From assembly GCA_043823195.1 (NCBI GenBank), contig JBDRAZ010000103.1, forward strand, positions 42,038 through 106,037: 64,000 nucleotides of DNA, given 5' to 3'. The DNA comes from an archaeon. Its GTDB lineage: Archaea; Nanobdellota; Nanobdellia; Woesearchaeales; JBDRAZ01. The first letter of the stretch is position 1, and each line of letters starts with the position of its first letter. Both the position numbers and the translations under genes were made by a program. Shown here piece after piece: positions 16,575 through 33,129 of this stretch. The notes beneath the pieces are model-generated. The model was not told the origin of the DNA. It saw only the letters and a program-made list of their open reading frames with translations, and did not search any database.

Positions 16575-16581
16575 TTCGATC

Positions 16582-18729
16582 CTACTGCACGCATTCCCTG
16601 CATGTAAGGTTATCGCCGGCCCTTCCCCCCAGGCTTACGCTGTCGATATATATGACCCTCTCTTCCTGCGCATTAAGATCATTGTCAATCCTGAACCTGT
16701 AGGACTTTACCATGTCAAGGTCCCGTCTCCCGTTCCCCTGAAAAGGGAATGATTCGTCCTGCGGCTCAAGCTCATCGAACAGGACGGTAATAAGTGTCCA
16801 GTTCCTGCCAAGCAGGACATCTGCGTTCCTGTATTCCCACCAGTCATCATCCCTGTCAACAATGTACAGGTGCAGCATCCCGCCCATCCCGTCCCCCCTC
16901 ACCGCAAAACTGATGCTCTCATAATCACTCCAGTCCTGACCAATATTCCGGTATGCCTTTATGTGCTTGACAACCCCCTGATCCTCGCCGAAGCTGACCG
17001 AGAGCCTGAGTGAGTTCCTGCCTTCAAATGCATGGCTGTCCGCAGACGCGGCAATAAAAACGGATGGCTCGTGGTCCGGGTCGCCGCTGCCAAATCCCTC
17101 AAAAACCATGTTGCTGAGGTCGCCGTCCTCAAAGTCATCTATGGTCTGATCTGCATCTCCCGCTTCACCTTCACTGTCAATCACCTTGTAGATGAAGAAT
17201 ATCTCCTCGCCCTTTGAGTCCCTTATCTTTTCAAGAATGGCCAGCTCCTTTCCCGCCTCCCGGGCCGCCTGTTCAAGCCCCTCCAGCCTGCCCCTGAATA
17301 TCGTGTGCCTCTTGGAATAAAACACATAGGCATTGGCCGGATCATTGACCCTGTCCTTAATGTCGGCGATATATTCCGCCGGCGGGCCCTCCTCCGCAGG
17401 ATTCTCGCTGACATAAATGTCAATTGGCGCGACCGCACCCCTCGTATTGATCAGTACCGGGTTAGATATTCCCCAATCCATGATCAGGGGTTCAGCTATC
17501 CCGTTTTCCATGAGGTATTCAGATAACCTGTACAGCGCATCTGAATAGCGGGCGGCATCGCCGGGATGTATTATGTGGGTCTCGTAGCGCAGAGTGTAGA
17601 TGCTGCCGGCAATCACCAGGAAAATTACCCAGAGCCACAGGTAAATCTTATTATGCCCAAAAACCCGGACAACAGAAACAGCAATGATCTGCGCCATGAG
17701 CGGAAGCAGTATCAGCTTATGGTGTGCGCCGAAATTTGTGACTGTTACTGTCAGGGTCAACAAGATCACCGCGAAATTGACAAGCACAAAGGCCAGGTTT
17801 CTTCTTATGCTGCGAATGCCCGCCAGGATGATAATGACTGATGCCAGAAGCAACAGGTTGTAAATCACGGGTGATACTGAGAGCAGTTGCGTGATGTTTG
17901 TGGCAAGATTGCCTGATACATCCAGGTTGTTGGTGCCGAATCTGGTGCCAGGAAAATTTGAAAAAAAGAACTTAAAGGTCCCAAGGGTGATTATGTTGTA
18001 AATCAGGAGCGGCATGCACCCCGCTGCAAAGCTGCAGGCTGCAAGGGCTGCCTCTTTGCGCTTCAGTGGCAGGACCGGCCGCACGTTCTTCCACCTGAGG
18101 AGAACCGGCGCAGACGCCGCCAGGGCAAACAGGTAGAAGAGGAACAGCAGAAGGGTGTATGTCCCGAACCCGAGCATAAAGAATCCCGCGTAAAGATACC
18201 GGCGTTTCTTTGTATCCGCATATCTCAGGAAGCAGAGCAGGGCAGCATAATAAAGCAGCATAAGGAAATGGATAATCAGTGTGCTCCGGTTCATGTAGAG
18301 GAAATTGATATGGAATGCAAGTGCGGCTGTGGCCACATATGCAACTTTCCTTGAAAAGAATCCCTTAGTGAACAGGTAATATGCCACGAGCATGAGCATC
18401 TGCAGCATAATCAGGGGAATTCTTATCGAGTATACGCTGATGTCAAAGACCCCGAAGATCCCCATATAGAGGTAGGCAAGTGTCCATCCCGCATACGGGG
18501 TAGCCATAACCGGAAGCTCCACCCCTGACACGTTCACGCTGTACTCCACCATTCTTTCCTTAACCTCGTCACTCAGCCCGCCGGACAGCATCTGCATGGC
18601 AACTATCGGCTCAATCACGGCATCATAGGAGAGCGCAGGCATGCCAATATCACGGATATTAAGGAAGAAGAACAATGCCAGCACCGCAGCAAGAAAGGCA
18701 ATCTCGCTTCTCCTCATCTGTCTTTTCAT
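16582..18729 (-). CDS. polytopic membrane protein (GT-C-type glycosyltransferase-like) with C-terminal CBM11/CIA30-like beta-sandwich domain
   Basis: About 13 predicted TM helices in the first 450 aa. The C-terminal ~200 aa are paralogous to 24126..24905 and 30936..31688 (shared ..DWSxYxxxxFAVxGDGxGGxLxLxxVDxDxDWWxYxxxxxLxxxxWTxxTxxFxxLxxxxxxFPxxGxG..YRxRID). Confidence 0.55.
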   Translation of the reverse strand: MKRQMRRSEIAFLAAVLALFFFLNIRDIGMPALSYDAVIEPIVAMQMLSGGLSDEVKERMVEYSVNVSGVELPVMATPYAGWTLAYLYMGIFGVFDISVYSIRIPLIMLQMLMLVAYYLFTKGFFSRKVAYVATAALAFHINFLYMNRSTLIIHFLMLLYYAALLCFLRYADTKKRRYLYAGFFMLGFGTYTLLLFLFYLFALAASAPVLLRWKNVRPVLPLKRKEAALAACSFAAGCMPLLIYNIITLGTFKFFFSNFPGTRFGTNNLDVSGNLATNITQLLSVSPVIYNLLLLASVIIILAGIRSIRRNLAFVLVNFAVILLTLTVTVTNFGAHHKLILLPLMAQIIAVSVVRVFGHNKIYLWLWVIFLVIAGSIYTLRYETHIIHPGDAARYSDALYRLSEYLMENGIAEPLIMDWGISNPVLINTRGAVAPIDIYVSENPAEEGPPAEYIADIKDRVNDPANAYVFYSKRHTIFRGRLEGLEQAAREAGKELAILEKIRDSKGEEIFFIYKVIDSEGEAGDADQTIDDFEDGDLSNMVFEGFGSGDPDHEPSVFIAASADSHAFEGRNSLRLSVSFGEDQGVVKHIKAYRNIGQDWSDYESISFAVRGDGMGGMLHLYIVDRDDDWWEYRNADVLLGRNWTLITVLFDELEPQDESFPFQGNGRRDLDMVKSYRFRIDNDLNAQEERVIYIDSVSLGGRAGDNLTCRECVQ

Positions 18730-19976
18730 TTGCTATGGTACCTTCTTACATTCACGAGCGCAGTTGCCCGGGAGATGCCGTAATCCGTGGATATCTCGCC
18801 CTGGTTGCAGCATGACATCACCTGATAATCAATGCGGGCGGGATCGCAGATAACAGCAAAGGCCAGGATCATGCAGCCGGCGCCGCCCGCCTTTGTGAAT
18901 GTCAGGGGGCCCGAATAGGCCAGCCTGAAAAGGCTAGGCAGCAGGAGCAGGCTTCGCCACCGCATTGCCGTGATGAGCCTCATCCAGCTTATGATGCGGG
19001 CATTGCCCGGGATAGCGGCCAATCTCCTGAGGTCAACAAAATCGGCAAGTGTTCTTACCCTTTTTCCCCTGAACAGGGGGTAGTACAGGTTGTAAAAGCA
19101 TTTCTTCCTGCCAAAGATATGCGAGAGCAGGTACAGGAGCGGCTGGCTGCGGTATACCCTGCCTGTTGAAACCCTCCCCCCGGTTGACCTGCAGAGTTCA
19201 TCCATAATATCCTCAACGCACATCAGGCCTCCGGGCATCTTCATGTGCGCCACCGGCCTGAACACCACTGCTTTAACGAACCTGTTATTCAGGGCATAGC
19301 GCAGTATCCCTGGCGTCTCGCCAATATTATTCTCATCCACCGTGGCTTCGATTACCGTTGGCATGCGGCATCCCCTCAGGTTCCGGAGCGCCAGGAGCTT
19401 GCTGTCCAGGAGGTCAGCTCCGCGACGCCCGATATAATAGTCCCTGTCAAAACCGTCAAACTGAAGATGAACCTCAGAGACCCCTGATTTCTTAAGCATC
19501 TCAACATAAGGCTTCTGAGCCAGCCTGATGCCGTTTGTATGCAATAGGGCAGCATTGCCTGATTCTCTGACTATCCTGATTATGTCGGCCAGGTCTTCCC
19601 TGATTGTCGGCTCCCCGCCGAACAGGCCGATCTTCTTTCCCCTGAATCCCGCCAGCAGCTGCCTGATCTCCCTGAGCGACGGCTCACGGTATTTGTGGTA
19701 GTTGGCCCTCACAAAGCATTCCCTGCAGCTGATGTTGCAATCAAGCGTCAGCATCAGCTGATACAAATCAGGCCCCGGACCCTTGCCGGGATATGAGAAA
19801 TAGGAATCATGCATTGCCCGGTAATCCCCCGGATGCGAAGAAAGCATCACACTGAAATCCCCGTGGTCGCTGCAGCTCTTGACCATCTTCACTGTCCCGG
19901 ACGTTTCAACCACATCTGCACTGATCTTCCTGAGGCATACCGGGCACAATGAGTGCGTCTTTCTCAGCACGTTCAT
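18726..19976 (-). CDS. zinc-ribbon-radical SAM fusion enzyme (paralog of 22728..24047)
   Basis: N-terminal CPVCLRK..(20)..CSDHG ribbon, then LTLDCNISCRECFV (CxxxCxxC), GLFGGEPT, LHTNGIRL. C-terminal Cys cluster (..CDP..SCCNQG). Confidence 0.6.
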   Translation of the reverse strand: MNVLRKTHSLCPVCLRKISADVVETSGTVKMVKSCSDHGDFSVMLSSHPGDYRAMHDSYFSYPGKGPGPDLYQLMLTLDCNISCRECFVRANYHKYREPSLREIRQLLAGFRGKKIGLFGGEPTIREDLADIIRIVRESGNAALLHTNGIRLAQKPYVEMLKKSGVSEVHLQFDGFDRDYYIGRRGADLLDSKLLALRNLRGCRMPTVIEATVDENNIGETPGILRYALNNRFVKAVVFRPVAHMKMPGGLMCVEDIMDELCRSTGGRVSTGRVYRSQPLLYLLSHIFGRKKCFYNLYYPLFRGKRVRTLADFVDLRRLAAIPGNARIISWMRLITAMRWRSLLLLPSLFRLAYSGPLTFTKAGGAGCMILAFAVICDPARIDYQVMSCCNQGEISTDYGISRATALVNVRRYHSK

Positions 19977-19980
19977 AACC

Positions 19981-20008
19981 TTAATAAACTATGCTCGGTT
20001 TATATAAT
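19981..20008. promoter_or_regulatory. 38-bp divergent promoter region with TATA-like boxes for the minus-strand rSAM operon and the plus-strand B12-rSAM gene
   Basis: ccttaataaactatgctcggtttatataatttatt between divergent start codons at 19976 and 20014. Confidence 0.35.
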
Positions 20009-20013
20009 TTATT

Positions 20014-21448
20014 ATGGCGGATGTCATTCTTGTGCAGCCCAGAAGCGAGTTTCTTGATCGTCTGCAGGTGCACCCAAACATCCCTTTGAACCTTCTGGCG
20101 CTCGCATCCCGTCTGGACAGCTACAATGTCCGGATTATTGACCAGCGCACGGAACCCGGCTGGAGGGGCCAGCTCAAAAGGCACCTCCGGACTGACCCGG
20201 TTGCAGTAGGCATATCCTCAATAACCGGGAAACAGATCTCAAGCGCGCTGGATATTTCACAATTTGTCAAAAAGCACTCAGCGGCCGCAGTTGTCTGGGG
20301 CGGCCCGCACGCAACCCTTGAGCCCAGGCAGACCGTTGAAAACCAGTACATCGACATTGTGGCTGAAGGTGACGCAGAGGAGTCGTTCCCATCTGTTGTT
20401 GACCATCTTGAGGCGGGCTCCGGCCTGGACAGGGTCAAGGGCATCTGGCACAAGAGCAAAAGGATCACCTGCAATGGCCCGTCAAAGCCCTTTGACCTCA
20501 ACATGCAAAGGGACCTGCCTTTTGGGCTTCTTGACATGAGGAGGTACCTGGGTAAGGAAAAAAGGCTCATGATCGAGACCTCCCGCGGGTGCCCATCTGC
20601 CTGCACATACTGTTCTGCAAACAGGCACCCCTACAACGCCATGTCCCCTGAAAAAGCCGTTGACCTGATCCAGGCAGTATCTGGCTCGTATCATCTGGAG
20701 CACATCGCGCTTGCTGATTCAAATTTTTTTTTTTGACCACCGGCGCGCCCTGAGGATTATCCGGGGAATGATCAGGGAAAAGGTTGCCGCCAGGCTGTGG
20801 GTCCCAGGAACCCACATCATTCCGTTTTCGCGCTATGCAGGCCCTGAGCTCCGGCTTGTGCAGAAAGGCTGCAGCTATCTTGGGGTTGGAGCGGAATCAG
20901 GTTCCGACGCAGTCCTGAAAGAAATCGGAAAGAACATTACTGTCAGGCAGGTCACTGACTTCAACAGGAAGATAAAGGAATACGGCATCACGGTAAACTA
21001 CAATTTCATGAGCGGCTTCAGGGGCGAGACAGTGGATGACCTGGCATCAACAATCAGGCTTATGCTGGACCTGATCAGGCAGAACCCAAACGCAATCGGC
21101 GGACCGGTCAACCCTGTTCAGATCCTCCCTAGGACCCAGGTCTACAAACAGGCTGTACATGATGGCCTGCCGCCTCCGCGCAGGCTTGAAGACTGGATCC
21201 AGTTCAACAGCACCCTGGGAAGCAAGCTTGGGCATCTTCCGTGGGTTGACGCAGAACGGGCCGGCCTCCTCAGGGGCATCTATATATCTTCGCTGTTTCT
21301 GAACGACCAGTCGTCATACCTTCACACAAAGGCACTCAAGCCCGTGCATAAGCTGTTCAGGCGCATCTCAGAATACCGGCTGCGCAACCTGGCCTTTGGG
21401 CTTATGCCTGAAAGAGCAGTATACAACGCTCTTGAGGGGTTGCTCTAA
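20014..21448 (+). pseudogene. B12-binding (class B) radical SAM enzyme, frameshifted in a T11 homopolymer (20724-20734)
   Basis: ORF 20014..20736 has the B12-domain N-terminus and SRGCPSACTYCS, and ends ..ADSNFFF*. ORF 20711..21448 continues the TIM-barrel in the +1 frame. Joined they read ..ADSNFFFDHRRALRII.. One extra or missing T in the run restores the frame. Confidence 0.6.
20724..20734 (+). repeat. T11 homopolymer at the frameshift point
   Basis: Counted directly: aaa + 11 t + gacc. Confidence 0.8.
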
Positions 21449-22728
21449 AAGTGCTCGCCCCGCGCATGCCTCAGCCAGTAGTAGGCCCCATACACAGGCA
21501 GGAATCCCATAACCGGATACCTGAGGGGGCCTGGGTTATAGAACTGCATCTTCTCAAGCAGGTTTGTTCCCGGCCGCACTATCCCTTCCCTCACTGCCTG
21601 CTCATATAATTCTGTATGGGGGTAGATCCTGATGAGGCCGAAGAGCACCCTTCTGCCAGGCGACGATATCTTTGCCGCAAGCCGCAGCGTTTCAGATAAT
21701 GTGGAGACGGTCTCGCCGGGCGGATTAAGGAAGAACATGAATCCTGTATTGAGCTCTCTTGTTTTTTTTGCGCAGTCAATTATCTGGCCCACAGTAATTT
21801 CCTTCTTCAGCATGTCCAGCGTCCTCTGTGAGCCGGCATCAGGCGAAAATTCAAGGTAGCTGCAGCCCGATCTCTTCATCAGGCTGATGCTCTCCCTGTC
21901 TGCGTGGTCCGCCCTCATATAGGTGGCCCACGAAACATCCAGGTTCCTTGCGGCAATTCCCTTGCAGATGCCCCTCAGCTGCCGCTTATTGTCGCCGAAT
22001 ATGCAGTCGGCAAACCATGCCTTCCTGATTCCGTGGCCGGCCAGCTCCTCAACCTCATCAGCCACAGCCGCGGGGTCCCTGTACCTGACCTCGGCATTCT
22101 GGATGTTTGAGTATGTGCAGTATGTGCACTTGTAGCGGCACCCCCTCCTGGTCTGCACGCCATGGTCGGTATACCTGCTGAGCCGGATTCCGGGAAAATC
22201 CCTTTTTACCGGGCCGTCAATATCATGGATTGCGCTCGCCGGCCTGGTGAAGACAACCCTCCTGTTTTTCCTGTAGCATATCCCGCGGACTGATCCGGGA
22301 TCCCGCAGGTTTTCCAGCAGCTCGCAGACTGACCTCTCACCCTCTCCGATAATTCCGAAATCGATCCCCGTCTTTTCCATGATCTCCCTGCTGAACAATG
22401 TGAACCCTGATCCGCCCGCGATAAGGATGGCATTGCTGTTCTCTTTTATCAGCTTTACAGCCTTATAAAACCAGAAGATGTTCCTGTTCCTGATAAAGAG
22501 GTTCTCTGTCTGCGAGTCCGCATTCCTCAAGGATACCCCTATGACATCAAAGCCATCTCCTGCCTTCCTCCGCAGGCCCCCAAAGGGGTCTTCGGCAACA
22601 TTCATGTCAAATATCTCAACAGTGTGGCCTGCATTCTCAAGGGCTGTGCCTATATAGCAGAGGTTAAGCGGGAAAACCTTCCTTTTCCTGATATCCTGGC
22701 CAGGGGATTGCACAAGGAGGCAGTGCAC
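21445..22728 (-). CDS. B12-binding (class B) radical SAM enzyme (GTG start overlapping upstream TAG as TAGTG)
   Basis: Motifs VHCLLVQSPGQD..(B12 domain)..RRGCRYKCTYCTYS..FGDNK. The ORF track extends it to 22815, but a GTG at 22726-22728 overlaps the stop of the upstream gene. Confidence 0.6.
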   Translation of the reverse strand: MHCLLVQSPGQDIRKRKVFPLNLCYIGTALENAGHTVEIFDMNVAEDPFGGLRRKAGDGFDVIGVSLRNADSQTENLFIRNRNIFWFYKAVKLIKENSNAILIAGGSGFTLFSREIMEKTGIDFGIIGEGERSVCELLENLRDPGSVRGICYRKNRRVVFTRPASAIHDIDGPVKRDFPGIRLSRYTDHGVQTRRGCRYKCTYCTYSNIQNAEVRYRDPAAVADEVEELAGHGIRKAWFADCIFGDNKRQLRGICKGIAARNLDVSWATYMRADHADRESISLMKRSGCSYLEFSPDAGSQRTLDMLKKEITVGQIIDCAKKTRELNTGFMFFLNPPGETVSTLSETLRLAAKISSPGRRVLFGLIRIYPHTELYEQAVREGIVRPGTNLLEKMQFYNPGPLRYPVMGFLPVYGAYYWLRHARGEHF

Positions 22729-24047
22729 TATCTCATCCTCTCCCTCTCTATGTTCCCGTATGCCAGGCTGCTGGTTCTTCCGGAGCTCGAAATCTCGCCG
22801 CCGTCGCAGTTGCATGCGCTCTGGGTATCGAGGTTATGCATGTCGCATATGCTGCCGAATTCGATTATCAGGTATCTTCTCGTGAGACCAGACTGGCCAA
22901 AGACAAAGTGCTTTCCAAGGCGTTTCATCGCCAGTGTCTGGATCGCGCGGTATATCAGTCCGAGTGAGCCCCGGTTCAGATTCGTGAGGAGTCTGAACAG
23001 GACAATCCGGTTTTTTGATCTGATAAAATCCATCAGTGCATCCTGCATGTCATCAAGCCTCATGATCCCGCTTATCGGATCATAGCCCCCCTTGTTTCTC
23101 CGGACTACGTAGTAGTGGTTGTAGAAGCACCTGGGCTGGCCGAGCATATAAAAAAAGGCATAAATGAGCCTCTGGAAATTCAGGACATCTGCCTTTGTGA
23201 TCCTCCCATCGGTGCCCTTCTCAATGATGCCTATCTGCTCATCTATTGTCAACGAAACATCCCTGCTTAGTCCGGCCCTCCCGAGGTGGCTGTAGCTCTT
23301 GTAGAGGATTGCCCTTACAAACCCATGCTGCGCAGCATAATCCAGTATGCCTGCCATATTATTTTCATTAATTCCCCTTCCCACCGCAACCTGCAGTATG
23401 GTCGGCATGCTGAGCATCTCAAGATTCCTAAGGGCCCTGAGCTTTACGTCAAGCAGCTTTTTTCCCCTAAAAATCGAGCAGGGCTTATCAGAGAATCCGT
23501 CGAACTGCAGGTGCACCTCAACAAGCCCGGCACGCTTCAGCGATTTGAGGTATCCATGATCCGCTAGCCTTATCCCGTTAGTATGCAGGGCCGGGATGTT
23601 CCCGCTCTTCAGCACAGCCCTGATTACCTCAGCCAGGTCATCCCTCAGGGTTGGCTCGCCCCCGAACAAACCAATCTTGCAGTTCCGGAGGTCTTTCAGC
23701 TGCCCGGTAATCTGCTGGACAGATGGTTCACTGTATTCCCTGTTTGCGCTGACATGGCATATCGGGCAGTCCAGGTTGCACCGAAGGGTCAGGAACAGGT
23801 TATAGTACTCCTGGCTCATGTTCCATAGCAGGCCCTTTGAGCAGTCATTAAGCGAGAAATAGGCCTCAGAGGCAGCCCTGTAATAGCTGCTGTCATTTGA
23901 GATGACCGAGGATATCATCCCATGCTTTTTGCACCGGCGCTCCAGGAAAACCCTCGGCTTCCTCTCAACAACAGAAGCATTCAGCTCAGACACGCATATG
24001 GGGCAATAGGCCTTAGTCTTCCTTAATATCATGCATGCAGTAATCAA
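22728..24047 (-). CDS. zinc-ribbon-radical SAM fusion enzyme (paralog of 18726..19976)
   Basis: CPICVSEL..(20)..CKKHG, LTLRCNLDCPICHV, GLFGGEPT, LHTNGIRL. Collinear with 18726..19976 including HLQFDGF. Confidence 0.6.
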   Translation of the reverse strand: MITACMILRKTKAYCPICVSELNASVVERKPRVFLERRCKKHGMISSVISNDSSYYRAASEAYFSLNDCSKGLLWNMSQEYYNLFLTLRCNLDCPICHVSANREYSEPSVQQITGQLKDLRNCKIGLFGGEPTLRDDLAEVIRAVLKSGNIPALHTNGIRLADHGYLKSLKRAGLVEVHLQFDGFSDKPCSIFRGKKLLDVKLRALRNLEMLSMPTILQVAVGRGINENNMAGILDYAAQHGFVRAILYKSYSHLGRAGLSRDVSLTIDEQIGIIEKGTDGRITKADVLNFQRLIYAFFYMLGQPRCFYNHYYVVRRNKGGYDPISGIMRLDDMQDALMDFIRSKNRIVLFRLLTNLNRGSLGLIYRAIQTLAMKRLGKHFVFGQSGLTRRYLIIEFGSICDMHNLDTQSACNCDGGEISSSGRTSSLAYGNIERERMR

Positions 24048-24125
24048 AACGGTTTATATAATCTTTTTCATCCCGGTCTCATCCGGCCCATCGCGAGCCA
24101 GAATTCGGCGGTTTCAGGCAGAAAC

Positions 24126-24905
24126 TCAGCCAAGGGCGATTCTGTCAATATACAAAACGCGGTCTTCGCCAAGATTATCCGGAGTCGGCTGATCGATGCG
24201 TATTCTGTAATTTGTCACCCGGTCAAGATTCTTCACGCCATTGCCCCTGAACGGAAAATTTTCCCCCGGCGCTTCCAGGCTTTCAAACGGTATTGTAATT
24301 GATGTCCAGTTTCTCATATGCAGCACATCCCCGGAGGCATAATGCCACCAGTCTCCGTCTTCATCAACGACCCAGAATTGCAGAACCCCGCCTGACCCGT
24401 CCGGCTTCAATGACAGTTGGACACTCCCGTACCTGCTCCAGTTTTGACTTATTCTCTTGTATATCTTTATGTGCTTCCCGGCCTCATATTCGCCGAAATT
24501 GAACTCGATCATCATCGAGCTGTTGCCATCAAAGGAGACGCCTGAGGCAATGCTGGCATTCATTCTGATGGTGGGCTCATTGATGTCGTCTTTTCTTCCG
24601 AACCTTTCAAAAACAAAACCATCAATGCCCCGCTCAAAATCATCAAGTACTGTCAGGTTGCCCTCGGCCCTGCCAAAGGCGTCATCAAACAGCCCATCCC
24701 GCAAGCCTGCATCCTGTCTGCCTTCATTGTTATGCACCCAGAAGAAAAAGGCCACGATGAGAAATGCACTGATCCCCATGGCCAGGAAAAATGTCTTTCT
24801 TTCCCAGTCATCGGCTCTGCTTTTCCCGGTCAAGTCGTGCTCAGGTGATTTCATCGATCCTGCATAAGTGATGCTCTTATTTATTTCTGCCTGTCTGCCG
24901 GACAA
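24126..24905 (-). CDS. membrane-anchored CBM11/CIA30-like beta-sandwich domain protein
   Basis: One N-terminal TM helix (FFLAMGISAFLIVAFFFWV), then a domain paralogous to the C-terminus of 16582..18729 and to 30936..31688. Confidence 0.5.
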   Translation of the reverse strand: MSGRQAEINKSITYAGSMKSPEHDLTGKSRADDWERKTFFLAMGISAFLIVAFFFWVHNNEGRQDAGLRDGLFDDAFGRAEGNLTVLDDFERGIDGFVFERFGRKDDINEPTIRMNASIASGVSFDGNSSMMIEFNFGEYEAGKHIKIYKRISQNWSRYGSVQLSLKPDGSGGVLQFWVVDEDGDWWHYASGDVLHMRNWTSITIPFESLEAPGENFPFRGNGVKNLDRVTNYRIRIDQPTPDNLGEDRVLYIDRIALG

Positions 24906-25125
24906 TTCAGGGGCTCAAACACGCACCCGGGCAATAAGGCCCTGTCTGATTATCATGCACAAAAATTTCGCGGAATTGTCAAGAACCCATGGTCCACGAA
25001 GGGGGGATGTATCGGATGATGTCTGCTCATGCGCTGTGCAATCGGTTTTTGGAAATGATCAATAATTTTCAGCCAGTGATTGATCCCGGGGGCCAGGACC
25101 AGATGGAAAATTTCTGACTTTCTGA

Positions 25126-25186
25126 CATTGCGAAGGGCATTAAATCCAGCATTTCAGGGCGGGGCACTTTCGGTGGATTTTTATGA
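25126..25186. repeat. copy A of a recurrent intergenic GC-hairpin/U-tract element (ttgcgaagggc..gggcggggcactttcggtggatttttatga)
   Basis: Shares cgcagggc / c(c)cgcac / cgg(c)gg(g/a)ttttt(at) blocks with copies at 31952, 34662, 52757 and 57278. Confidence 0.45.
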
Positions 25187-25203
25187 TGCCGGTTTTCAAT
25201 AAG

Positions 25204-25215
25204 GTTTTTATAATC
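25204..25215 (+). promoter_or_regulatory. TATA box (ggtttttataatc) about 25 nt upstream of 25236
   Basis: AT-rich box at the canonical distance from the start codon. Confidence 0.4.
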
Positions 25216-25235
25216 TTTAATCTTTGACATGACTC

Positions 25236-26765
25236 ATGTCCCGCTCATTACTCATCTCCCGCTCATTATTGCTCATTTTGCTTGTCCTTCCGGCGGCATG
25301 CAATCCGGCAAAGCCCGGCAATACAAAGGTTGTGGTCCTGGCGATCGACGGCCTGTCATGGAACGTTATTCAGCCCATGCTCAACAACGGAGAGCTTGAA
25401 ACCTTTGGAAGCCTGATGGATAATGGCAGCTACGGCACACTCAATGTCCCGGAATGGGAAAGCTCACCCGTATTATGGACAACCATGGCAACCGGACGCC
25501 CCCGCCAGTATCATGGTATAGATGGGTGGTATTATTTCGATGCTGAGACTAGGTCATGGATGCCGACCGAATCAACAGCGAGGAAACTGCCGGCAATCTG
25601 GAACATTCTGTCAGGTTTCAACAGGACAGAAGTCATAATTGACTGGCCCGTCACCTCTCCGCCTGAGCAGATTAACGGGATCATGATAACCCGCTTCAAC
25701 TCAATTGAGCATATGGACATTTATCCTCATGACCGGCGGCCCGAGCTGGAGTCGCTTTTATCCTCTGCAGTCTATGATAATTCCCACCCAGACCCGTGGG
25801 TGAATTCCGAGCTCAGCGGCTTTGCCCGCTGGAAACTGCTGACATCAGCCTACCTGCGCGAATCCCCTGACCTTCTTGCCTCATATCTTCAGACCGCGGA
25901 TGGTCTGCAGCACAGGCTGTGGAAATACTATGAGCCTGAGCTGTTTGTCCATCCTGTCTGGGGGATCGATGAGGAAAACATAAAAGCCTACGGACAGGTA
26001 ATACCTGGCCATTACCGGGATATAGATGGCTACATTGGATCGCTCCGGGCCGGGCTGGATGAGCACACAGTCCTGATAATTATCTCTGATCATGGCCTAA
26101 GGCCGGTACCCAGCCCGACAATCAAGAAGTTCGACATTAACCGCATACTGCAAAAGGGGGGCCTGTTATCCCTTAACGCGGCAGGTGATATTGATTACAA
26201 CAGAAGTTCTGCCTACGAATGCGGGACTGCAGAAGAAGACATCAAAGTCTGCCTGAACCCTGATTACCTCAAAGATGCCTCGCGTCTCAGTCACGTGATC
26301 GACTCTGTCCGCGTAGGGGGCATCCGCCCTCTGATGCTTATGGAAGCTGAAGACTCCTATGCAGTCGTGCGGAATCTGCTCTTCAGAACCAGCCTGCCTG
26401 AGCAGATGGGCACAATTGAGGTCTTGTCTCATGACTACAATCTTTCGGGTTTTATAACGCTCTCCTTTTCAGGCGGCCACGACAACAGCGGCGTCATCTT
26501 CATGTCCGGGCCGAACCTCAAGAAGAACGTCCACCTGCGCAATGCAAGCCAGTTTGATGTGCTGCCGACGGTCCTGTATATCCTGGGCTTGCCTGTTGCA
26601 GAGGATATGGAGGGGCAGGTCCTCACCGAGGCATTTGATGCAGCTTACCTGGAAAAGAATCCGGTCAGGTTCATTGCCAGCTATGGGAAGAGAAGCATAA
26701 CCCCGGACCTGGCATCCAGCGACATGGAGTTAATTGACAAGCTGCGGTCTGTTGGCTATGTGTAG
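25236..26765 (+). CDS. secreted alkaline-phosphatase-superfamily enzyme, nucleotide pyrophosphatase/phosphodiesterase (NPP)-like
   Basis: Signal peptide/lipobox (LLLILLVLPAAC). VVVLAIDGLSWNV and SSPVLWTTMATGRPRQYHGI resemble NPP motifs (..TGLYPESHGI). The sulfatase C/S-x-P-x-R motif is absent. Confidence 0.55.
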   Translation: MSRSLLISRSLLLILLVLPAACNPAKPGNTKVVVLAIDGLSWNVIQPMLNNGELETFGSLMDNGSYGTLNVPEWESSPVLWTTMATGRPRQYHGIDGWYYFDAETRSWMPTESTARKLPAIWNILSGFNRTEVIIDWPVTSPPEQINGIMITRFNSIEHMDIYPHDRRPELESLLSSAVYDNSHPDPWVNSELSGFARWKLLTSAYLRESPDLLASYLQTADGLQHRLWKYYEPELFVHPVWGIDEENIKAYGQVIPGHYRDIDGYIGSLRAGLDEHTVLIIISDHGLRPVPSPTIKKFDINRILQKGGLLSLNAAGDIDYNRSSAYECGTAEEDIKVCLNPDYLKDASRLSHVIDSVRVGGIRPLMLMEAEDSYAVVRNLLFRTSLPEQMGTIEVLSHDYNLSGFITLSFSGGHDNSGVIFMSGPNLKKNVHLRNASQFDVLPTVLYILGLPVAEDMEGQVLTEAFDAAYLEKNPVRFIASYGKRSITPDLASSDMELIDKLRSVGYV

Positions 26766-26859
26766 CCTGACTGACCAGCTGGTTCGGTCTGTGGGATTCT
26801 GCCCGCTGGATTCTGCTCCTGTAGGTTCCCCCAGTCAGCAGGCAGCTCAGCCATTCTCC

Positions 26860-27984
26860 TCAGTCATCCCCTTCAATCATCCTCCTCAGCCATCTCCTCT
26901 GGGTTGTATGGCTGGGGTTGCACTGCGCGCAGTAGGAAGGTATCTCCCTCGCGAGAAGCCCCTTCCTGATCCTCTCAAAATACGGGCCGTACCATATGTC
27001 CGAAAGCGGCCGGTCACGTATGCTGTCCCCTTCATCTGTTGCAACGTCGCATGAAATCACCCTGCCGTCTGCCTTGACAGTCATGTGCAGCCAGGGGTCA
27101 TAGCATGGGACTGAAAGCAGGGACCGGCCATCGAACTCTTCGGAATCCTTCCTTACCACTTCGTGCATCGAGCTGCTCTTTTCGATAAGCTCATCATCAA
27201 CATTGCAGTCCAGGGTTGAGAAATTGCTGTCGATGCCGTACTTGCGGCCAAGCGCAATTGCCTTTTTCAGGTATTTCGGAAACTCTTTCCTGTGTTCCGC
27301 TGTGAGCCTTAATTCCTCGCCCCATTTTGAATATATGATTATTGGCTCAACAAACATGTACTCGGTCCCGATATCCCTTGCCAGCCTAACCATCTCAGGC
27401 AGCTGTTCGCAGTTCTTCACAGAGAGGACCGTATTCGTATTGATCATTGGCTTGCTGCTTTTCAGCCTCTTCTTGATCTGGCTGAGCCTCTTTGCCGCGC
27501 CGGTTGCCTTATCAAATGTCCCGGGGATTCCGCGCAGGTAGTCATGCGTCTTTGCATCAGGCCCGTCTATGCTGAAATGGATCCTGTCCCATCCGATCTC
27601 AACCAGGGTTTGGAGCTGCCCGGCAGAAAGGTTAGTGCCGTTTGTTGTCAGTATTCCGTACATGCCGTGCTTTTTAATCTCCCTTATCACAGGGAATGCG
27701 ACCTCCGGCACAAATGGCGGATCACCCCCGCCGGCAATATGCCATTCCCTAACGCCAAGTTCAGCCGCCTCGCGGACGATGGATACCCACTTCTCCTTCG
27801 GCATCTCAATTGTCCTGGAAAACTCATTTATGCGCCCGTATTTCTCATCAGCCCTCCTTGAGCATGACAGGCAGGTCAGGTTGCATCTCCGGTGCAGCTC
27901 AATATCTATCTTGACCGGCCCGGTTGGCCTGCCCTTATGCCAGCTGACCAGCCTCCTTATCTTTTCACGCTCAAGATCATCCAT
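26860..27984 (-). CDS. radical SAM enzyme with SPASM/twitch-type C-terminal domain
   Basis: RRLVSWHKGRP..HRRCNLTCLSCSRR, AGGGDP, TTNGTNL, VPCYDPW..GRVISC..CAQC. Confidence 0.75.
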   Translation of the reverse strand: MDDLEREKIRRLVSWHKGRPTGPVKIDIELHRRCNLTCLSCSRRADEKYGRINEFSRTIEMPKEKWVSIVREAAELGVREWHIAGGGDPPFVPEVAFPVIREIKKHGMYGILTTNGTNLSAGQLQTLVEIGWDRIHFSIDGPDAKTHDYLRGIPGTFDKATGAAKRLSQIKKRLKSSKPMINTNTVLSVKNCEQLPEMVRLARDIGTEYMFVEPIIIYSKWGEELRLTAEHRKEFPKYLKKAIALGRKYGIDSNFSTLDCNVDDELIEKSSSMHEVVRKDSEEFDGRSLLSVPCYDPWLHMTVKADGRVISCDVATDEGDSIRDRPLSDIWYGPYFERIRKGLLAREIPSYCAQCNPSHTTQRRWLRRMIEGDD

Positions 27985-27997
27985 CTAAGATAGCCCC

Positions 27998-29199
27998 CTA
28001 TTGAAAATTGCGCGGTGTACCCTGCACGAGCGGGGATAGGCGGTGATTATTCCTGATTCTGTTTCTCAGCTTATGGAGCGGGCTCTTAAGCAATCTGGCC
28101 AGGCTGTCTCTTGTCTTCCTTGTCTCGACGACAATACCTGAGGCACAGGTCCTGCAGTAAGACGGCAGTCTGCCGCTGACGACATCTTCCCGCAATTTTG
28201 CAAAATATGGCCCGTACCATATCTCATGAAGCGGCCTGCTATGTATCTTCTCTGCGTCATCCTGGAAATCGCACAGCCTGCACATCACCACATGCCCGCT
28301 GGCCCGGATCTCCATGTTAAGCCATGGCTCGTAGCATGGCGCTGAGAGAAACGGGTCATCACTGGGTTTCTTTTTGGCGTCATCAACCAGTATCATGTCC
28401 ATCTTGGTCTTGTCGATAAGCCTTGACTCCTGCAGGCTCTCCAGGTTTGTCGGCACGCTGAGCTTCCAGGACAGCTCCAGTGCTTCCTGTATCCCTTTCT
28501 GGAATTCCGTCTTCTGCCCCTCAGACAGCTTCAGCGTCTCGCCGGCTTCAGACCACACATTCAATGGCTCAAAGCACACCCCGTCGCAGCCCAGCTCATG
28601 CCCCCACTCTACCATCTCTTTGAGATGATTGTAGTTGCGGTTCGTCAGAACGGCATGAAAGCTGTAGGCCGGAACCCTGCTCCCGTACTCTTCCCTGTAT
28701 TTCTTGAAGTATCTCATGGTATTGACACTCCTCTCAAATGAGCCGGCAACCCCGGTCACATAATCATGGATCTCCGGGTTTGGGCCCTCCAGGCTGAACA
28801 GTATCTTGTCCCATCCGATCTCCACAAGGTTTCTTGCGGATTCCTCTGTAAACAGCGTCCCGTTTGTGGTCAGGCAGCCGAACATGCCGTATTGCTTTAT
28901 GAGGTTCATAATCCTCAGGGCGGTATCCGGCCTTGCCATCGGCTCCCATCCCCCGGCAATCTGCCACTCCAGTACGCCAAGCGCCGCAGCCTCATGGACA
29001 ATCTGCAGCAGCCTTTCCTCAGTCAGTGCTCTGGAATAGTTTGTGATCTTAAGCCGGTCCTCAGACCTCTGCCAGCAGAATTTGCACTTAAGGTTGCATG
29101 AATGCGTGGGCTCAAAATCTATCTTGACAGGTCCGGCCCTTTCGCCCCCGGCCCACCTGGCAAGCCTCTTTATGCGTTCTTTTTGAATTCCCTCATTCA
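27998..29199 (-). CDS. radical SAM enzyme with SPASM/twitch-type C-terminal domain (start taken at MNEGIQKERIKRLARW; the ORF extends to 29302)
   Basis: THSCNLKCKFCWQR, AGGWEP, TTNGTLF, APCYEPW..GHVVMC..CRTC. A TATA-like ttataggatatatga lies just upstream of the chosen ATG. Confidence 0.7.
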
Positions 29200-29361
29200 T
29201 CTGCTCTAGCTCATATATCCTATAATGCCCCCGGCACATGATGGGAAAGTCAAGTTTTTTATATAGTTTATGATGGGCCGGGGCATGCCTGCCTTGCGGC
29301 ACGGGTGCGTCAAACCCTTTTTAGGCCCGGGAAAATAATATCTCGCGCCTTGCCTGGCACC

Positions 29362-29375
29362 TAGCTAACATTTAT
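29362..29375 (+). promoter_or_regulatory. TATA box (acatttatatagat) about 30 nt upstream of 29403
   Basis: AT-rich box at the canonical distance from the start codon. Confidence 0.4.
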
Positions 29376-29402
29376 ATAGATAATTGCGATACAAAGAGTA
29401 AA

Positions 29403-30926
29403 TTGGGGGCACCTCTAACGATGGGCTACAGGACTGCCATGGCAGCATCTCTTAAACGGGACAGGTATTTTTGCCTGCTTATTGGAATTCTTCTGTTGTC
29501 TCTTTTTTTCAGGGTCTATGGCCTGTCTGCCGGCCCGCTGAGGAATGATGAGGCATATGATACTGTTTTCAGGGGAATGGATGCCGGTGTCGCAATCCAG
29601 CTTTACAGGTTGCTTGATTGGGGTCCGCCGGTTTTTTACCGCCTCATTATCAGGTTATCATCTTCTTTTCTGCCTTACAATGAATGGGGTTTAAGGTATC
29701 CTTCAGTGATATTTGGGGCAATAAGCGTATTATTGATTTATTATCTGGGTGCGCATCTATTTAGCAAAAAGACCGGCCTTATTGCAGCCCTCTTAATGGG
29801 CATAAATCCGTTTCATATTTACTATTCGCAGCTGGCGAGGGGCTATTCATTGTTCATAATGCTGGTCATGCTTTCCAGCCTGGCATTTTTTCAGTTCATA
29901 AAAAGCAGGGGCTATAGGTCCCTTCTGGCTTACACTGCGGTCACCCTGCTCGCATTGTACACCCATGAGACGCTTGTATTTCTTGTGGTTGTCCAAAACG
30001 TGCTGTTCTTTCTTCAGTACCGGGGTTCCGGAAGGGCCTTATTAAAATGGCTGATCCCCAATTTTTTATTTGTGGCGGCATTTTTCGGGATATACAATTT
30101 TTTTTTTTTCCATCGGGTAAAGGTACGTTACACTGAGACCCTGTGGTGGATTCCGCGGCCGGAACCCGGCGCCCTGTTCGGGACTCTCAAATCCTTTCTT
30201 TACGGTCCGTACTATCACCTCACAAACCATTGGTTTCAGCTATTGCTTGGTATGTTTGCTTTTTTTGTTCTATTCCTGCTGATTCATTCACTGGCCAGTC
30301 CCGGGAGGGAAGCATGGAAGCTGTCTTATCTGGTCCTGCTTCTTATTGTGCCCGTTGCATCCGTCTATATCTGGTCTGTTCTGGGAACCCCCTATTCCCT
30401 TTATAACAATGACTATCTGGTTGTGTGCCTTCCTCCTCTCATCTTATTGCTGTCTTATGCAATCTCCGGCCTAAAAAGGGGACACATTCCGGTGTTTGTG
30501 ATTCTGTTTCTTGCCGTTGTGGGTCCCCTGATTGTGTTGGGCGGCTATTCAACGGTTCAAAACAGGGATGTGAGAGGCGCAGCCGGCTACATACAATCAA
30601 TAAATCCCGATGCTTTGATTCTGGTCTACCCGTCATGGTACATGCAGCTCGCAAATTTCTATCTTGGTCAGCGGTCAAGAATATCGTCAACAAAATCCGG
30701 TGAGGAATTCAGGCAGGCAATAGGCAATGAGACTGAATTCTGGATCTTGTTTGGCTCTGCAGAATTGCCCGGAGACTATGAGAGCATCTATGGGATAACC
30801 GATAATGAAACAGCAAAAGGCTATGATGTCACTGTATCAAGGGCGAGGGGGATTGATATCTTTCGCTTTGTCCGCAGGGGGTGTGGGCATCATCCCTGCA
30901 GATCCACAGATAATGGTGATGAATAA
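29403..30926 (+). CDS. GT-C-type glycosyltransferase, PMT/ArnT (GT39/GT83)-like polytopic membrane protein
   Basis: RVYGLSAGPLRNDEAYD..RYPSVIFGAISVLLIYYLGAHLFSKKTGLIAALLMGINPFHIYYSQLARGY matches the conserved first-loop DE motif plus TM2-4 of the PMT_2/ArnT family. About 11 TM helices. Confidence 0.6.
   Translation: MGAPLTMGYRTAMAASLKRDRYFCLLIGILLLSLFFRVYGLSAGPLRNDEAYDTVFRGMDAGVAIQLYRLLDWGPPVFYRLIIRLSSSFLPYNEWGLRYPSVIFGAISVLLIYYLGAHLFSKKTGLIAALLMGINPFHIYYSQLARGYSLFIMLVMLSSLAFFQFIKSRGYRSLLAYTAVTLLALYTHETLVFLVVVQNVLFFLQYRGSGRALLKWLIPNFLFVAAFFGIYNFFFFHRVKVRYTETLWWIPRPEPGALFGTLKSFLYGPYYHLTNHWFQLLLGMFAFFVLFLLIHSLASPGREAWKLSYLVLLLIVPVASVYIWSVLGTPYSLYNNDYLVVCLPPLILLLSYAISGLKRGHIPVFVILFLAVVGPLIVLGGYSTVQNRDVRGAAGYIQSINPDALILVYPSWYMQLANFYLGQRSRISSTKSGEEFRQAIGNETEFWILFGSAELPGDYESIYGITDNETAKGYDVTVSRARGIDIFRFVRRGCGHHPCRSTDNGDE
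30098..30109 (+). repeat. T12 homopolymer inside the GT-C coding region (encodes N-F-F-F-F), currently in frame
   Basis: Counted directly. Same AAT(T)n codon context as the frameshifted T11 tract at 20724. Confidence 0.8.
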
Positions 30927-30935
30927 CAGGATCAG

Positions 30936-31688
30936 ATGGCGTTAAAACCGATAATGAAATGGATTAGGCGGCATTTTATGTATAAAGAATCTGCATGGCC
31001 CGACATGGCCGGCCTGCCGGGAGTCCTGGGGATAAGCATAGTCATCATGGCCTGCATTGCCCTCCTTGGCGCATTTGGGGTTCTCGGGGGCCATGATAGT
31101 CACAGTGCAGTGTATGTAAGCTATCTTAACTCCAACATTAGCGGGGAAACAGCCATGCTGTCTGATTTTGAGGGCGGCGGTGTTGATTTCAGGCTGGAAA
31201 AGTATGGCAAAAACCACGGCACAGATGAGGGCACCATATTGCTGGAAGCGAACCTGGACCGGTCAGCACCCTATGCCGGCAGTCAATCCCTGAGGCTTTC
31301 GTTCAATTTCGGGGAGCCGATCACAGGCACACCCAAGCACATAAAAGCCATTAAGGCAGTCAGGCAGGACTGGAGCCGGTTTGAATACCTGAATTTTGCT
31401 GTGAAGGGTGATGGCCGCGGCGGAAGATTGTATCTGTGGGTTGTTGATGGTGATGGGGACTGGTGGTATTATTCCAGCGACCATCTATTGTACTCAACAG
31501 ACTGGAACCTTGTTACAGTCCCGCTGGACCAGCTGAGCGGGACTGGGCCGAATTTTCCATATCATGGTGATGGGAACAAGGACTTTCATGATGTGGCAGA
31601 ATACAGGATAAGGATAGAGCAGCCGGTAAGGGAGACAAATGGCGCGGATCGGGAAATATACCTTGACAGCATATTCCTGGGGCGGTGA
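30936..31688 (+). CDS. membrane-anchored CBM11/CIA30-like beta-sandwich domain protein
   Basis: N-terminal TM (GISIVIMACIALLGAFGVLGG), then a domain paralogous to 24126..24905 and to the C-terminus of 16582..18729. Starts 10 nt after the GT-C gene's stop. Confidence 0.5.
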   Translation: MALKPIMKWIRRHFMYKESAWPDMAGLPGVLGISIVIMACIALLGAFGVLGGHDSHSAVYVSYLNSNISGETAMLSDFEGGGVDFRLEKYGKNHGTDEGTILLEANLDRSAPYAGSQSLRLSFNFGEPITGTPKHIKAIKAVRQDWSRFEYLNFAVKGDGRGGRLYLWVVDGDGDWWYYSSDHLLYSTDWNLVTVPLDQLSGTGPNFPYHGDGNKDFHDVAEYRIRIEQPVRETNGADREIYLDSIFLGR

Positions 31689-31898
31689 TGCGCAGGCACC
31701 CCTGCAATGCCTATGCCAATGAACCCGCGCGGCCTCATATTTATTGTGCCGTAAAACATTTGACTCTTTCTCAACCCGGGGCCGGCATGGGCATGAGGCT
31801 GCCGGGACATTCACTGAAAAAGCAGAGGGAATCATGGATGACGGCGACGGGTCACAAACGCCTCAGACCTGCGCACAGCCTAATCTGCATAAAGCCAA

Positions 31899-31910: not shown

Positions 31911-31951
31911 TCTTGCTGCAGCAACCGGGTTGGGATCTGTGCGCATATTCA

Positions 31952-33128: not shown

Positions 33129-33129
33129 A

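Follow-up and report, generated by a model that had tools for sequence, protein, structure and literature searches.

CtCBM11, a module of Clostridium thermocellum Lic26A-Cel5E (PDB 1v0a, 6r3m; Pfam PF03425), occurs as an appendage of secreted glycoside hydrolases, and its ligands are beta-1,3-1,4- and beta-1,4-glucans. The domain described here is ~15-18% identical to CtCBM11 but comes from an archaeon, where membrane glycosyltransferases carry it as a fusion or have it anchored alongside. CIA30/NDUFAF1, a complex I assembly factor (Pfam PF08547; PDB 7zkq), is a protein-binding chaperone, and our copies match its family only at a sub-threshold level. In the mycobacterial GT-C arabinofuranosyltransferases AftD and EmbC, periplasmic, outer-face beta-sandwich carbohydrate-binding modules (CBMs) of a polytopic GT-C bind a complex glycan acceptor, and the AftD structure provides a precedent for a GT-C combined with such modules (10.1101/2019.12.22.885152). 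The likeness to our locus is one of design and homology is not implied: the GT-C here is of the PMT_2 type, the CBM family is different, the host is an archaeon, and here a separate anchored protein can also provide the CBM in trans.

The locus is also dense in radical SAM (rSAM) genes. Enzymes of the Tes, TrsS and MJ0619 type share an N-terminal Zn ribbon (PF23545) and an rSAM core with two of them. GenK-type B12 C-methyltransferases, AprD4 and BlsE are radical SAM sugar-tailoring enzymes of secondary metabolism. B12-binding and SPASM/twitch rSAM enzymes acting on carbohydrates offer a chemical precedent for rSAM genes lying among DegT, epimerase and glycosyltransferase genes; however, those of secondary metabolism act singly and on small-molecule sugars, whereas here 8-16 paralogous rSAMs stand in envelope-glycan arrays, some of them fused to a CBM.

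The window, meaning the whole stretch of 64,000 nucleotides that was analysed, holds a surface-glycan gene island of an uncultured archaeon, unusually rich in radical SAM enzymes. Its features were as follows.

11722..16574, minus strand: left part of a radical SAM/SPASM array, comprising 11722/12119..13606 (split by a frameshift), 13590..14753 and 14796..16574 (rSAM-SPASM with TPR repeats) (Pfam)
16582..18729, minus strand: 715-aa fusion protein, with a ~11-TM PMT_2 GT-C (residues 1-382), a ~130-aa linker domain and a CBM11-like domain (residues ~515-703, 16582..17190)
18726..19976, minus strand: Zn-ribbon radical SAM, Tes/TrsS-like, with a CNISCREC motif (Pfam Zn_ribbon_HMPTM 59.4 bits, Radical_SAM 55.9 bits)
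20014..21448, plus strand (split by a frameshift, as shown by tblastn), and 21445..22815, minus strand: B12-binding radical SAMs (Pfam)
22728..24047, minus strand: second Zn-ribbon radical SAM (Zn_ribbon_HMPTM and Radical_SAM), 79 nt downstream of 24126..24905
24126..24905, minus strand: stand-alone CBM11-like protein (CBM_11 32.5 bits) with one N-terminal TM anchor, predicted N-in
25236..26765, plus strand: AlkP/NPP-family phosphodiesterase, secreted and lipoprotein-like (Pfam Phosphodiest 91.3 bits; signal MSRSLLISRSLLLILLVLPAAC)
26860..29302, minus strand: two rSAM-SPASM genes (26860 and 27998; Pfam), whose best matches elsewhere are single genes
29403..30926, plus strand: 507-aa PMT_2 GT-C (Pfam PMT_2 46.2 bits); its first outer loop carries a DE motif and its outer tail spans ~120 aa
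30936..31688, plus strand: free-standing CBM11-like protein, TM-anchored at its N terminus; the gene begins 10 nt past the GT-C stop
32013..33128 (SPASM), 34712..35803 (SPASM) and 35873..37324 (B12): further rSAM genes
33130..34197: ORF without an assigned family
37292..62774: contiguous glycan-biosynthesis genes (Pfam)

An earlier note had proposed that the ORFs at 16582..18729, 24126..24905 and 30936..31688, all present as it described, carry paralogous CBM11/CIA30-like beta-sandwich domains, and alignment, Pfam and structure matches agreed on this. Full-length alignment of the last ~200 residues of the first ORF with the bodies of the other two gave 53 invariant columns and reproduced its conserved motif (DWS.Y, DG.GG.L, VVD.DGDWW.Y, NWT, FPF.GNG and YRIRID), and the pairwise comparison that it had recommended yielded 40-45% identity, with E ≤2.5e-42 in every pair (BLASTP; 8e-52, 2.5e-42 and 1.9e-51). 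An HMM search across all six frames of the entire window found exactly three copies and no fourth. Pfam CBM_11 matched all three (E 1.7e-9, 1.2e-7 and 2.3e-5; 38.5 bits in the fusion protein), and a 25-sequence domain profile matched CtCBM11 (1v0a, 2lro) across the whole domain at E 4e-12. The AF2 model of the domain (pLDDT 92.6) retrieved CtCBM11 as its top three Foldseek matches (TM 0.67-0.73). The three sequences are paralogous CBM11-family modules of a very rare archaeal clade. The spirochaete sheath protein FlaA1 has the same fold.

Judged by hydropathy and the positive-inside rule, all three window domains lie outside the cell, the predicted location agreeing with that expected in the earlier note. 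In the 11-TM model of the fused GT-C (Pfam PMT_2 28.6 bits, GA 26.1), all four K/R-rich loops fall on the N-terminal side, so the C-terminal tail is predicted to lie outside; the full-length AF2 model (pLDDT 43.7) was unusable for topology. Asp36 in the first outer loop of this GT-C was invariant in six PMT_2 proteins. In 24126..24905, K/R residues precede a TM segment at residues 39-57, and five N-x-S/T sequons follow the anchor; a sixth (NKS, residue 9) lies upstream of the NCBI start. The NCBI gene models of the stand-alone copies begin 14 and 17 codons later than ours (P0001, 236 aa, and P0002, 242 aa, the latter identical to 24126..24905). N-terminal TM segments were found in 31 of 45 short homologues.

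As described earlier, a GT-C carries one of the copies as a fusion, and another copy directly follows a second GT-C. The TAA stop of the second GT-C ends at 30926 and AGGA precedes the ATG at 30936, so that with this start codon the 10-nt gap is genuine. This GT-C matched Agl23 weakly (36.9 bits against a cutoff of 126) and was 24-30% identical over 360-420 aa to PMT_2 genes of two other loci, L015 and L016. The two GT-Cs aligned with each other only locally (23% over 126 aa) and belong to different PMT_2 lineages; therefore, the pattern does not represent fusion and fission with one GT-C gene, as had been suggested. A CBM partner accompanied only two of the four PMT_2 GT-Cs in the window. The third copy stands divergent from the phosphodiesterase gene, the same divergent pair recurs in L007, and a Phosphodiest gene also lies within the L013 cluster.

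These observations suggested to us, with a probability of roughly 55%, that the domains are glycan-recognition modules serving outer-face enzymes (the two GT-Cs and the lipoprotein phosphodiesterase) that act on a surface glycan tailored by rSAMs. Each module would sit at the outer face of the cytoplasmic membrane, one as the C-terminal domain of the ~11-TM PMT_2 GT-C and two as type-II anchored proteins. Each would be paired with a different enzyme: the first GT-C by fusion, the second within the same operon, and the phosphodiesterase through its divergent gene. Their role would be non-catalytic, the modules binding the surface glycan or its lipid-linked precursor and holding the substrate at the partner enzyme. 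The surrounding ~50-kb island would build and heavily tailor that glycan, using sugar-nucleotide enzymes, GT2, GT4, a flippase, a carbamoyltransferase and the products of 14 rSAM genes.

The modules could instead be protein-binding assembly or scaffold factors of the CIA30/NDUFAF1 kind that tether GT-Cs and envelope enzymes into a membrane complex and, in fusions, attach rSAM enzymes to partner proteins. Pfam CIA30 matches 34 of 67 mid-length homologues, the domain occurs both in the cytoplasm and anchored to the membrane, and the array rSAM at 14796..16574 carries TPR repeats, a protein-binding module. However, the sequence homology is to CBM11, as the profile match to CtCBM11 shows, and CIA30 matched a single window copy at 13.4 bits, below the GA of 24. 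The best structural matches were all carbohydrate-binding modules, and the broader family has mostly CAZyme-type architectures (GH26, glucoamylase, CBM30, beta-helix). We consider a scaffold function unlikely.

The glycan-recognition reading draws its tailoring step from the rSAM genes, which make up 12 of the ~20 core genes. In the left array, CxxxCxxC motifs were present and the frameshift split was confirmed by tblastn. Five window rSAM-SPASM genes have best-hit partners in L008 at 43-53% identity (43-46% for the left array), and four (13590, 26860, 27998 and 34712) are also matched in L010 at 45-54%. Specifically, 13590 is 48% identical in L010, 26860 is 53% identical to L008_14354 and 54% to L010_10001, and 27998 is 50% identical to L008_17227 and 49% to L010_8830. 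The glycan genes at 37292..62774 encode a nucleotidyltransferase, two UDP-Glc/GDP-Man dehydrogenases, epimerases/dehydratases, four DegT aminotransferases, a Wzx-like flippase, GT4, GT2, a carbamoyltransferase, two B12-rSAMs (45457 and 52817) and two PMT_2 GT-Cs (46838..48001 and 60915..62774). Among the rSAMs of the island, every family-level match stayed below its cutoff.

Radical SAM enzymes are heavily used in archaeal lipid modification (PMC8941075; 10.1101/2025.10.20.683597), and the island rSAMs might thus modify membrane lipids or the polyprenol carrier, with the GT-Cs and phosphodiesterase decorating head groups and the modules binding glycolipid head groups. Among NCBIfam models, Tes and TrsS give the highest scores for the Zn-ribbon rSAMs (E 1e-40 to 3e-51), and a "lipid biosynthesis B12-binding/radical SAM protein" model does so for 21445..22815 (247 bits). 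Nevertheless, the Zn-ribbon scores of 139-175 bits fall far under the equivalog cutoffs of 450-490 (for 18726..19976, TrsS 150 against 490 and Tes 139.5 against 450), so an identity as Tes or TrsS was rejected. The B12-binding pair was likewise sub-cutoff (rSAM_ladder_B12, 247 bits against 360; BzaD, 243 bits). The rSAM genes are interleaved with DegT, epimerase, dehydratase, GT2, GT4, carbamoyltransferase and flippase genes, a homologue (P0024) joins SPASM, CBM11 and GT4 in one polypeptide, and lipid-synthesis genes were not found in the window, leaving a lipid target rather improbable.

The Zn-ribbon genes had been read as part of a repeated unit, since two of the three domain copies lie beside them. 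That arrangement is present: the stop of 18726..19976 overlaps the start of the fused GT-C in ATGA, and its 38%-identical paralogue 22728..24047 adjoins the second copy. However, by our own calculation at least two of three such adjacencies would arise by chance at roughly p 0.1, because rSAM genes are so dense in the ~20-gene core, and the arrangement was not reproduced elsewhere. Orthologues of 22728..24047 (~50% identity) adjoin PMT_2 GT-Cs in the sugar-nucleotide/GT clusters of L015 and L016, where no CBM11-like gene lies within 10 kb, and in the other loci that hold the domain the rSAMs are of the SPASM or B12 type. GT-C, CBM and rSAM do not form a fixed unit; the triad that recurs elsewhere runs rSAM, CBM, GT4.

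The broader link to radical enzymes is real and strong, more so than could be seen from the window. More distant homologues lie in archaeal and metagenomic clusters of 8-12 rSAM genes plus a GT-C or GT4. In L004, eight consecutive rSAM genes are followed by the CBM and then GT4, an order repeated in L002 and L003; L008 has 12 rSAM genes and L009 has 9, both loci including a PMT_2 gene and the CBM-like P0017; and L013 holds 11, with GT4. The tally of architectures returned an independent PMT_2 fusion in another archaeon (P0026) and five direct rSAM fusions: P0016 and P0067 (CBM repeats with rSAM-SPASM), P0065 (rSAM-SPASM with CBM), P0024 (SPASM-CBM-GT4) and P0081 (B12-rSAM with CBM, one of the 11 in L013). 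The rSAM and GT4 fusions lack TM segments and P0017 lacks an anchor, so the domain is cytoplasmic there, and an extracytoplasmic location does not hold for the family at large. In the split rSAM-CBM-GT4 operons, the CBM protein has 2-3 predicted TM anchors and its partners are cytoplasmic. The cytoplasmic forms are awkward for a purely outer-face role. For glycan recognition, the coupling to cytoplasmic tailoring enzymes in other lineages, through such operons and fusions, would suggest that the family recognises one type of substrate, inside and outside the membrane alike. The domain is dispensable for the pathway, as L010, which has an rSAM array, L015 and L016 lack it within 10 kb.

SPASM and B12 rSAM enzymes typically act on peptides and proteins, according to reviews, and the CBM11-like proteins might themselves be substrates, cross-linked or methylated at their Trp/Asp/Tyr motifs, or be structural sheath or S-layer-associated proteins that lack a partner enzyme. 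The strong motif conservation across three paralogues, the shared fold of FlaA1 and the TPR repeats on one array rSAM would fit such a role. However, the motifs DDFE, DWS, DG.WW.Y and W..I.PF are largely common to CtCBM11 and therefore resemble core elements of the fold, not dedicated sites of modification. It would be unlikely for an enzyme to be joined to a folded substrate of 175 aa in five distinct architectures, and arrays without the domain exist. We regard both versions as very doubtful. We give equally little credence to an incidental co-localisation of ordinary envelope lectins with functionally unconnected rSAM genes in a large glycan island: the chance level of the Zn-ribbon adjacency and the contigs of L001, L005/L006 and L007, which hold the domain and no rSAM gene, are in its favour, but rSAM genes are directly adjacent or fused in 7 of 10 independent homologue loci, the five fusion proteins exist, and the gene order of the rSAM-CBM-GT4 operons on three contigs equals the domain order of P0024.

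The three copies noticed in the earlier note were found to be one domain of ~200 residues. The C-terminus of the fusion protein aligned full-length with the bodies of the two free proteins, with pairwise BLASTP identities of 40-45% (E 1e-42 to 1e-52) and 53 invariant columns in the alignment of all three. A six-frame HMM scan of the 64-kb window returned exactly three copies, which were arranged with their neighbors as follows.

Genes carrying or accompanying the domain in the window
16582..18729, minus strand: PMT_2 GT-C with the domain at its C-terminus (715 aa)
18726..19976, minus strand: Zn-ribbon radical SAM enzyme (rSAM)
22728..24047, minus strand: Zn-ribbon rSAM
24126..24905, minus strand: free copy of the domain
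25236..26765, plus strand: AlkP/NPP-family phosphodiesterase
29403..30926, plus strand: second PMT_2 GT-C
30936..31688, plus strand: free copy of the domain

The fold proposed for the domain was correct, and CBM11 is a better fit than CIA30. Two copies exceeded the Pfam CBM_11 gathering score (GA) of 27 (16582, 38.5 bits; 24126, 32.5 bits), and the third, 30936..31688, was slightly under it at 25.0 bits. No PDB relatives were found with a 3-sequence profile; the CBM11 of Clostridium thermocellum (CtCBM11) surfaced only with a 25-sequence clade profile, which matched chains 1v0a and 2lro at E 4e-12 from sequence alone and across the full domain (profile 10-174 vs. chain residues 7-167). The window domain has a beta-sandwich (jelly-roll) fold superposable on CtCBM11. 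The CIA30 HMM (PF08547) did not reach its gathering score with the window copies, and the reading of the domain as a CIA30-like protein scaffold is less likely, as it conflicts with part of the data. The motif quoted in the earlier note was recovered from the alignment and is conserved in all three copies; it fell short as a signature, since DDFE, DWS, DG.W.Y and W..I.PF are mostly common to CtCBM11 and are therefore core family features. Binding of beta-glucan in a tyrosine-lined cleft on the concave face is a hallmark of the CBM11 family. In the HMMER alignment, the position of CtCBM11 Tyr22 was apparently taken by an aromatic residue (EKY/ERF/EGF). Whereas CtCBM11 is appended to a glycoside hydrolase, the window domain has no such partner and is joined to a PMT_2 GT-C or to a bare TM anchor.

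The close clade was very rare. When the three-copy profile was run exhaustively with HMMER against 1.84 billion cluster representatives, only 171 proteins were recovered at E <= 1e-3, and E <= 1e-30 was reached by four only, namely the three window proteins and one anchored outside relative of 264 aa (P0004). The 4-member clade alignment, scanned against the contigs of 185,579 species-representative genomes, yielded no close-clade relatives. With either 30936..31688 or the 715-aa fusion as query, word-indexed searches for homologues gave essentially self-matches only.

Both GT-C partners exceeded the PMT_2 gathering score (PF13231, GA 26.1), at 28.6 bits for 16582..18729 and 46.2 bits for 29403..30926. 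Asp36 of the fused GT-C, in the first outer loop after TM1, was invariant in six of six PMT_2 proteins compared, and N-D-E-A-Y-D directly followed TM1 in 29403..30926. The start of the fused GT-C shared an ATGA overlap with the Zn-ribbon rSAM 18726..19976, and the 10-nt gap between the stop of 29403..30926 and the ATG at 30936 was real, with AGGA preceding the ATG. One copy is fused to a GT-C and one lies 10 nt behind a GT-C, as the earlier note had described. The idea that these were fused and split forms of a single GT-C gene was rejected, as the GT-Cs aligned locally only (23% over 126 aa); on this alignment they are different PMT_2 lineages. A second, independent fusion of PMT_2 with the domain was found in another archaeon (P0026).

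Hydropathy and charge placed all three domains outside the cell, the location that had been proposed. The two free copies and P0004 have one N-terminal hydrophobic segment with K/R on its N-terminal side. For the fused protein, hydropathy and the positive-inside rule gave a coherent N-in/C-out model of 11 TM segments, in which all four K/R-rich loops (122-128, 172-180, 213-226 and 306-311) lay on the side of the K/R-rich N-terminus, and the acidic first loop (Asp36) and the tail 383-715 lay on the opposite side. The same loop-charge pattern was present in 29403..30926. An AF2 model of the fused GT-C over its full length, built from four aligned sequences, was unusable (pLDDT 43.7), so the outside location stays a prediction.

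The region from ~11.7 to 62.8 kb of the window formed one large glycan island. It held 14 rSAM genes with CxxxCxxC among ~51 ORFs, and its core held 12 among ~20 genes; the types were SPASM (one of them TPR-fused), B12 and two Zn-ribbon enzymes. Accompanying genes encoded four GT-Cs of PMT_2 type, GT4 and GT2 glycosyltransferases, a Wzx-like flippase, one carbamoyltransferase, four DegT aminotransferases, and sugar dehydrogenases, epimerases, dehydratases and nucleotidyltransferases. The copy 24126..24905 was divergent from the AlkP/NPP-family gene, whose product bears a lipoprotein-like signal. Given the fusion, the 10-nt gap and this pairing, each copy accompanies a different predicted outer-face enzyme. 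A divergent pair of a CBM11-like gene and a secreted AlkP/NPP-type phosphodiesterase gene occurred both in the window (24126..26765) and on an unrelated AT-rich contig (L007 849..3734).

Beyond the window, the domain was repeatedly associated with rSAMs. A tight operon of an rSAM (349 aa), a TM-anchored CBM11-like protein (275 aa) and a GT4 (552 aa), in that order, was present on three metagenome contigs, and at one of them seven further rSAM-SPASM genes lay ahead.

Operons encoding rSAM, TM-anchored CBM11-like protein and GT4
L002, 205..3736
L003, 728..3964
L004, 8442..11988

The order of this operon was repeated in a single polypeptide of 961 aa, SPASM::CBM11::GT4 (P0024, L012 441..3326). 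The homologues included five rSAM fusions, namely P0024, an rSAM-SPASM::CBM protein (P0065), two proteins with CBM repeats ahead of rSAM-SPASM (P0016, P0067) and a B12-rSAM with an inserted CBM (P0081), and the PMT_2 fusion P0026. The cluster of P0081 contained 10 other rSAM genes, a GT4 and a Phosphodiest gene (L013 15270..16031), and that of another homologue, P0017, contained 12 rSAM genes, a PMT_2 GT-C, a B12-rSAM and a GDSL esterase. An rSAM was adjacent or fused at 7 of 10 independent homologue loci. These recurrent operons, arrays and fusions strongly supported a broader link of the domain to rSAMs, and incidental co-location of the two is less likely, since part of the data contradicts it.

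A specific unit of Zn-ribbon rSAM and CBM, which the earlier note had also proposed, was not supported. The two Zn-ribbon rSAMs were 38% identical to each other, and both had Zn_ribbon_HMPTM and Radical_SAM domains with a CxxxCxxC motif. By our own calculation from a core of ~20 genes, with 12 rSAMs of which two were Zn-ribbon, the chance that at least two of the three CBM genes adjoin a Zn-ribbon rSAM was roughly p 0.1. Orthologues of a Zn-ribbon rSAM (~50% identity) lay beside PMT_2 GT-Cs in glycan clusters on two metagenome contigs, from which a CBM11-like gene was absent. Identity of the Zn-ribbon rSAMs with Tes or TrsS was rejected (NF045702 and NF045646; 139.5-174.4 bits vs. cutoffs of 450 and 490). 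Glycan islands of other metagenomes (L015 10001..13774; L016 4780..13582) contained two or three Tes/TrsS-like Zn-ribbon rSAM paralogues per cluster, with PMT_2 GT-Cs, a carbamoyltransferase, DegT and B12-rSAMs as neighbors, and several remoter homologues carried an N-terminal hemerythrin domain (PF01814).

The array itself looks like a conserved entity, as yet unnamed, to which the CBM11-like module is a frequent and dispensable accessory. Five window rSAM-SPASM genes had their best hits to single genes of L008, a locus of P0017 (43-53% identity), and four of the five also matched single genes of L010 (45-54%), an array lacking the domain within 10 kb, from a GTDB-representative 'uncultured archaeon' (CAYNTH010000001.1), in which 16 of 18 ORFs encode rSAMs alongside a DUF2079 membrane protein. 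These one-way best hits suggested orthology. Between the same two rSAM-SPASM genes, L008 (11865..12218) and L010 (12393..12749) each had a conserved ORF of ~117 aa, a predicted coiled coil of no confident family, of which no counterpart was seen in the window.

On the most economical reading, the rSAM array would tailor a glycan and the domain would be the module that recognizes it. In the window the domain would serve outer-face enzymes, two GT-Cs and one phosphodiesterase, and in other lineages it would be attached directly to cytoplasmic tailoring enzymes. On a bolder reading, the domain would be a dedicated CBM11-derived substrate-targeting module in an undescribed pathway conserved in uncultured archaea, in which arrays of 8-16 paralogous rSAMs (SPASM, B12 and Zn-ribbon) modify an envelope glycan once it is an oligo- or polysaccharide, with the module fused to cytoplasmic rSAM/GT4 and outer-face GT-C enzymes in a CBM-guided radical chemistry on polysaccharides. 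We consider this a tentative proposal, with a chance of roughly three in ten. In mycobacteria, the periplasmic CBMs of the GT-Cs AftD/Emb bind the acceptor glycan (10.1101/2019.12.22.885152). The predicted window architecture is analogous to that of these enzymes; no homology to Emb/AftD is implied. The rSAM/GT4 fusion proteins had no TM segments, and the split operon versions had predicted 2-3-TM anchors, C-out; either the ligand is a lipid-linked intermediate recognized on both membrane faces, before it is flipped and afterwards, or the simple topology predictions fail for part of the family. Lipid instead of glycan chemistry would find some favor in weak Tes-like and ladderane-like rSAM matches; all of these were far below cutoff. 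This alternative is less likely, as is the suggestion that the domain itself is the rSAM substrate, and each conflicts with part of the data.

CBMs are familiar as targeting modules, both in glycoside hydrolases and in the GT-C arabinosyltransferases of mycobacteria. In the window, archaeal membrane glycosyltransferases would be served by a CBM11 relative, in cis and apparently also in trans, and the same family is repeatedly wired to rSAMs in operons, arrays and five different fusion architectures. In the available open-access literature, we found no description of an rSAM with a carbohydrate-binding module, of envelope-glycan islands in which between a quarter and most of all genes encode rSAMs, or of rSAM arrays with CBM11 or GT-C. 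CBM11 and the GT-C-with-CBM design are already known; what appears undescribed is the archaeal arrangement in cis and in trans and the recurrent coupling of CBM and rSAM. There is a non-negligible chance that these modules mark a radical tailoring system of a new kind, acting at the level of polysaccharides. Should the link prove functional, it would open a large unexplored chemistry of cell-surface glycans in DPANN and other uncultured archaea, for which the CBM ectodomains, together with the rSAM-CBM-GT4 enzyme in one polypeptide, offer handles on the substrates.

Several further features of the island were observed. The rSAM-dense tract spanned 11722..37324, plus 45457..46836 and 52817..54289, and two of its genes were split.

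Split rSAM genes
11722..12261 and 12119..13606, minus strand: rSAM-SPASM in frames -2/-3, matching consecutive parts of L008 10693..11868
20014..20736 and 20711..21448, plus strand: B12-binding rSAM in overlapping frames +1/+2, both covered consecutively by tblastn with the paralogue 21445..22815

The alternatives for the split B12-rSAM are a pseudogene and a frameshift in the assembly, and 12119..13606 carried an N-terminal extension of ~240 aa. No convincing small ORF for a RiPP precursor was found in the intergenic gaps of the island. The sole notable one, 10926..11294(+), lay in a 1.1-kb gap just upstream of the array and encoded a small Cys-rich protein. Its signal ([16 protein letters not shown]) was lipoprotein-like, and one of its motifs ([18 protein letters not shown]) resembled Kazal-type inhibitors, which is unusual for an archaeon. 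Two ORFs inside the array, 33130..34197(+) (355 aa) and 34194..34631(+) (~145 aa), had no Pfam match. The rSAM-SPASM at 14796..16574(-) had a C-terminal TPR block (residues ~360-570), which would let at least one enzyme of the array dock to a partner protein.
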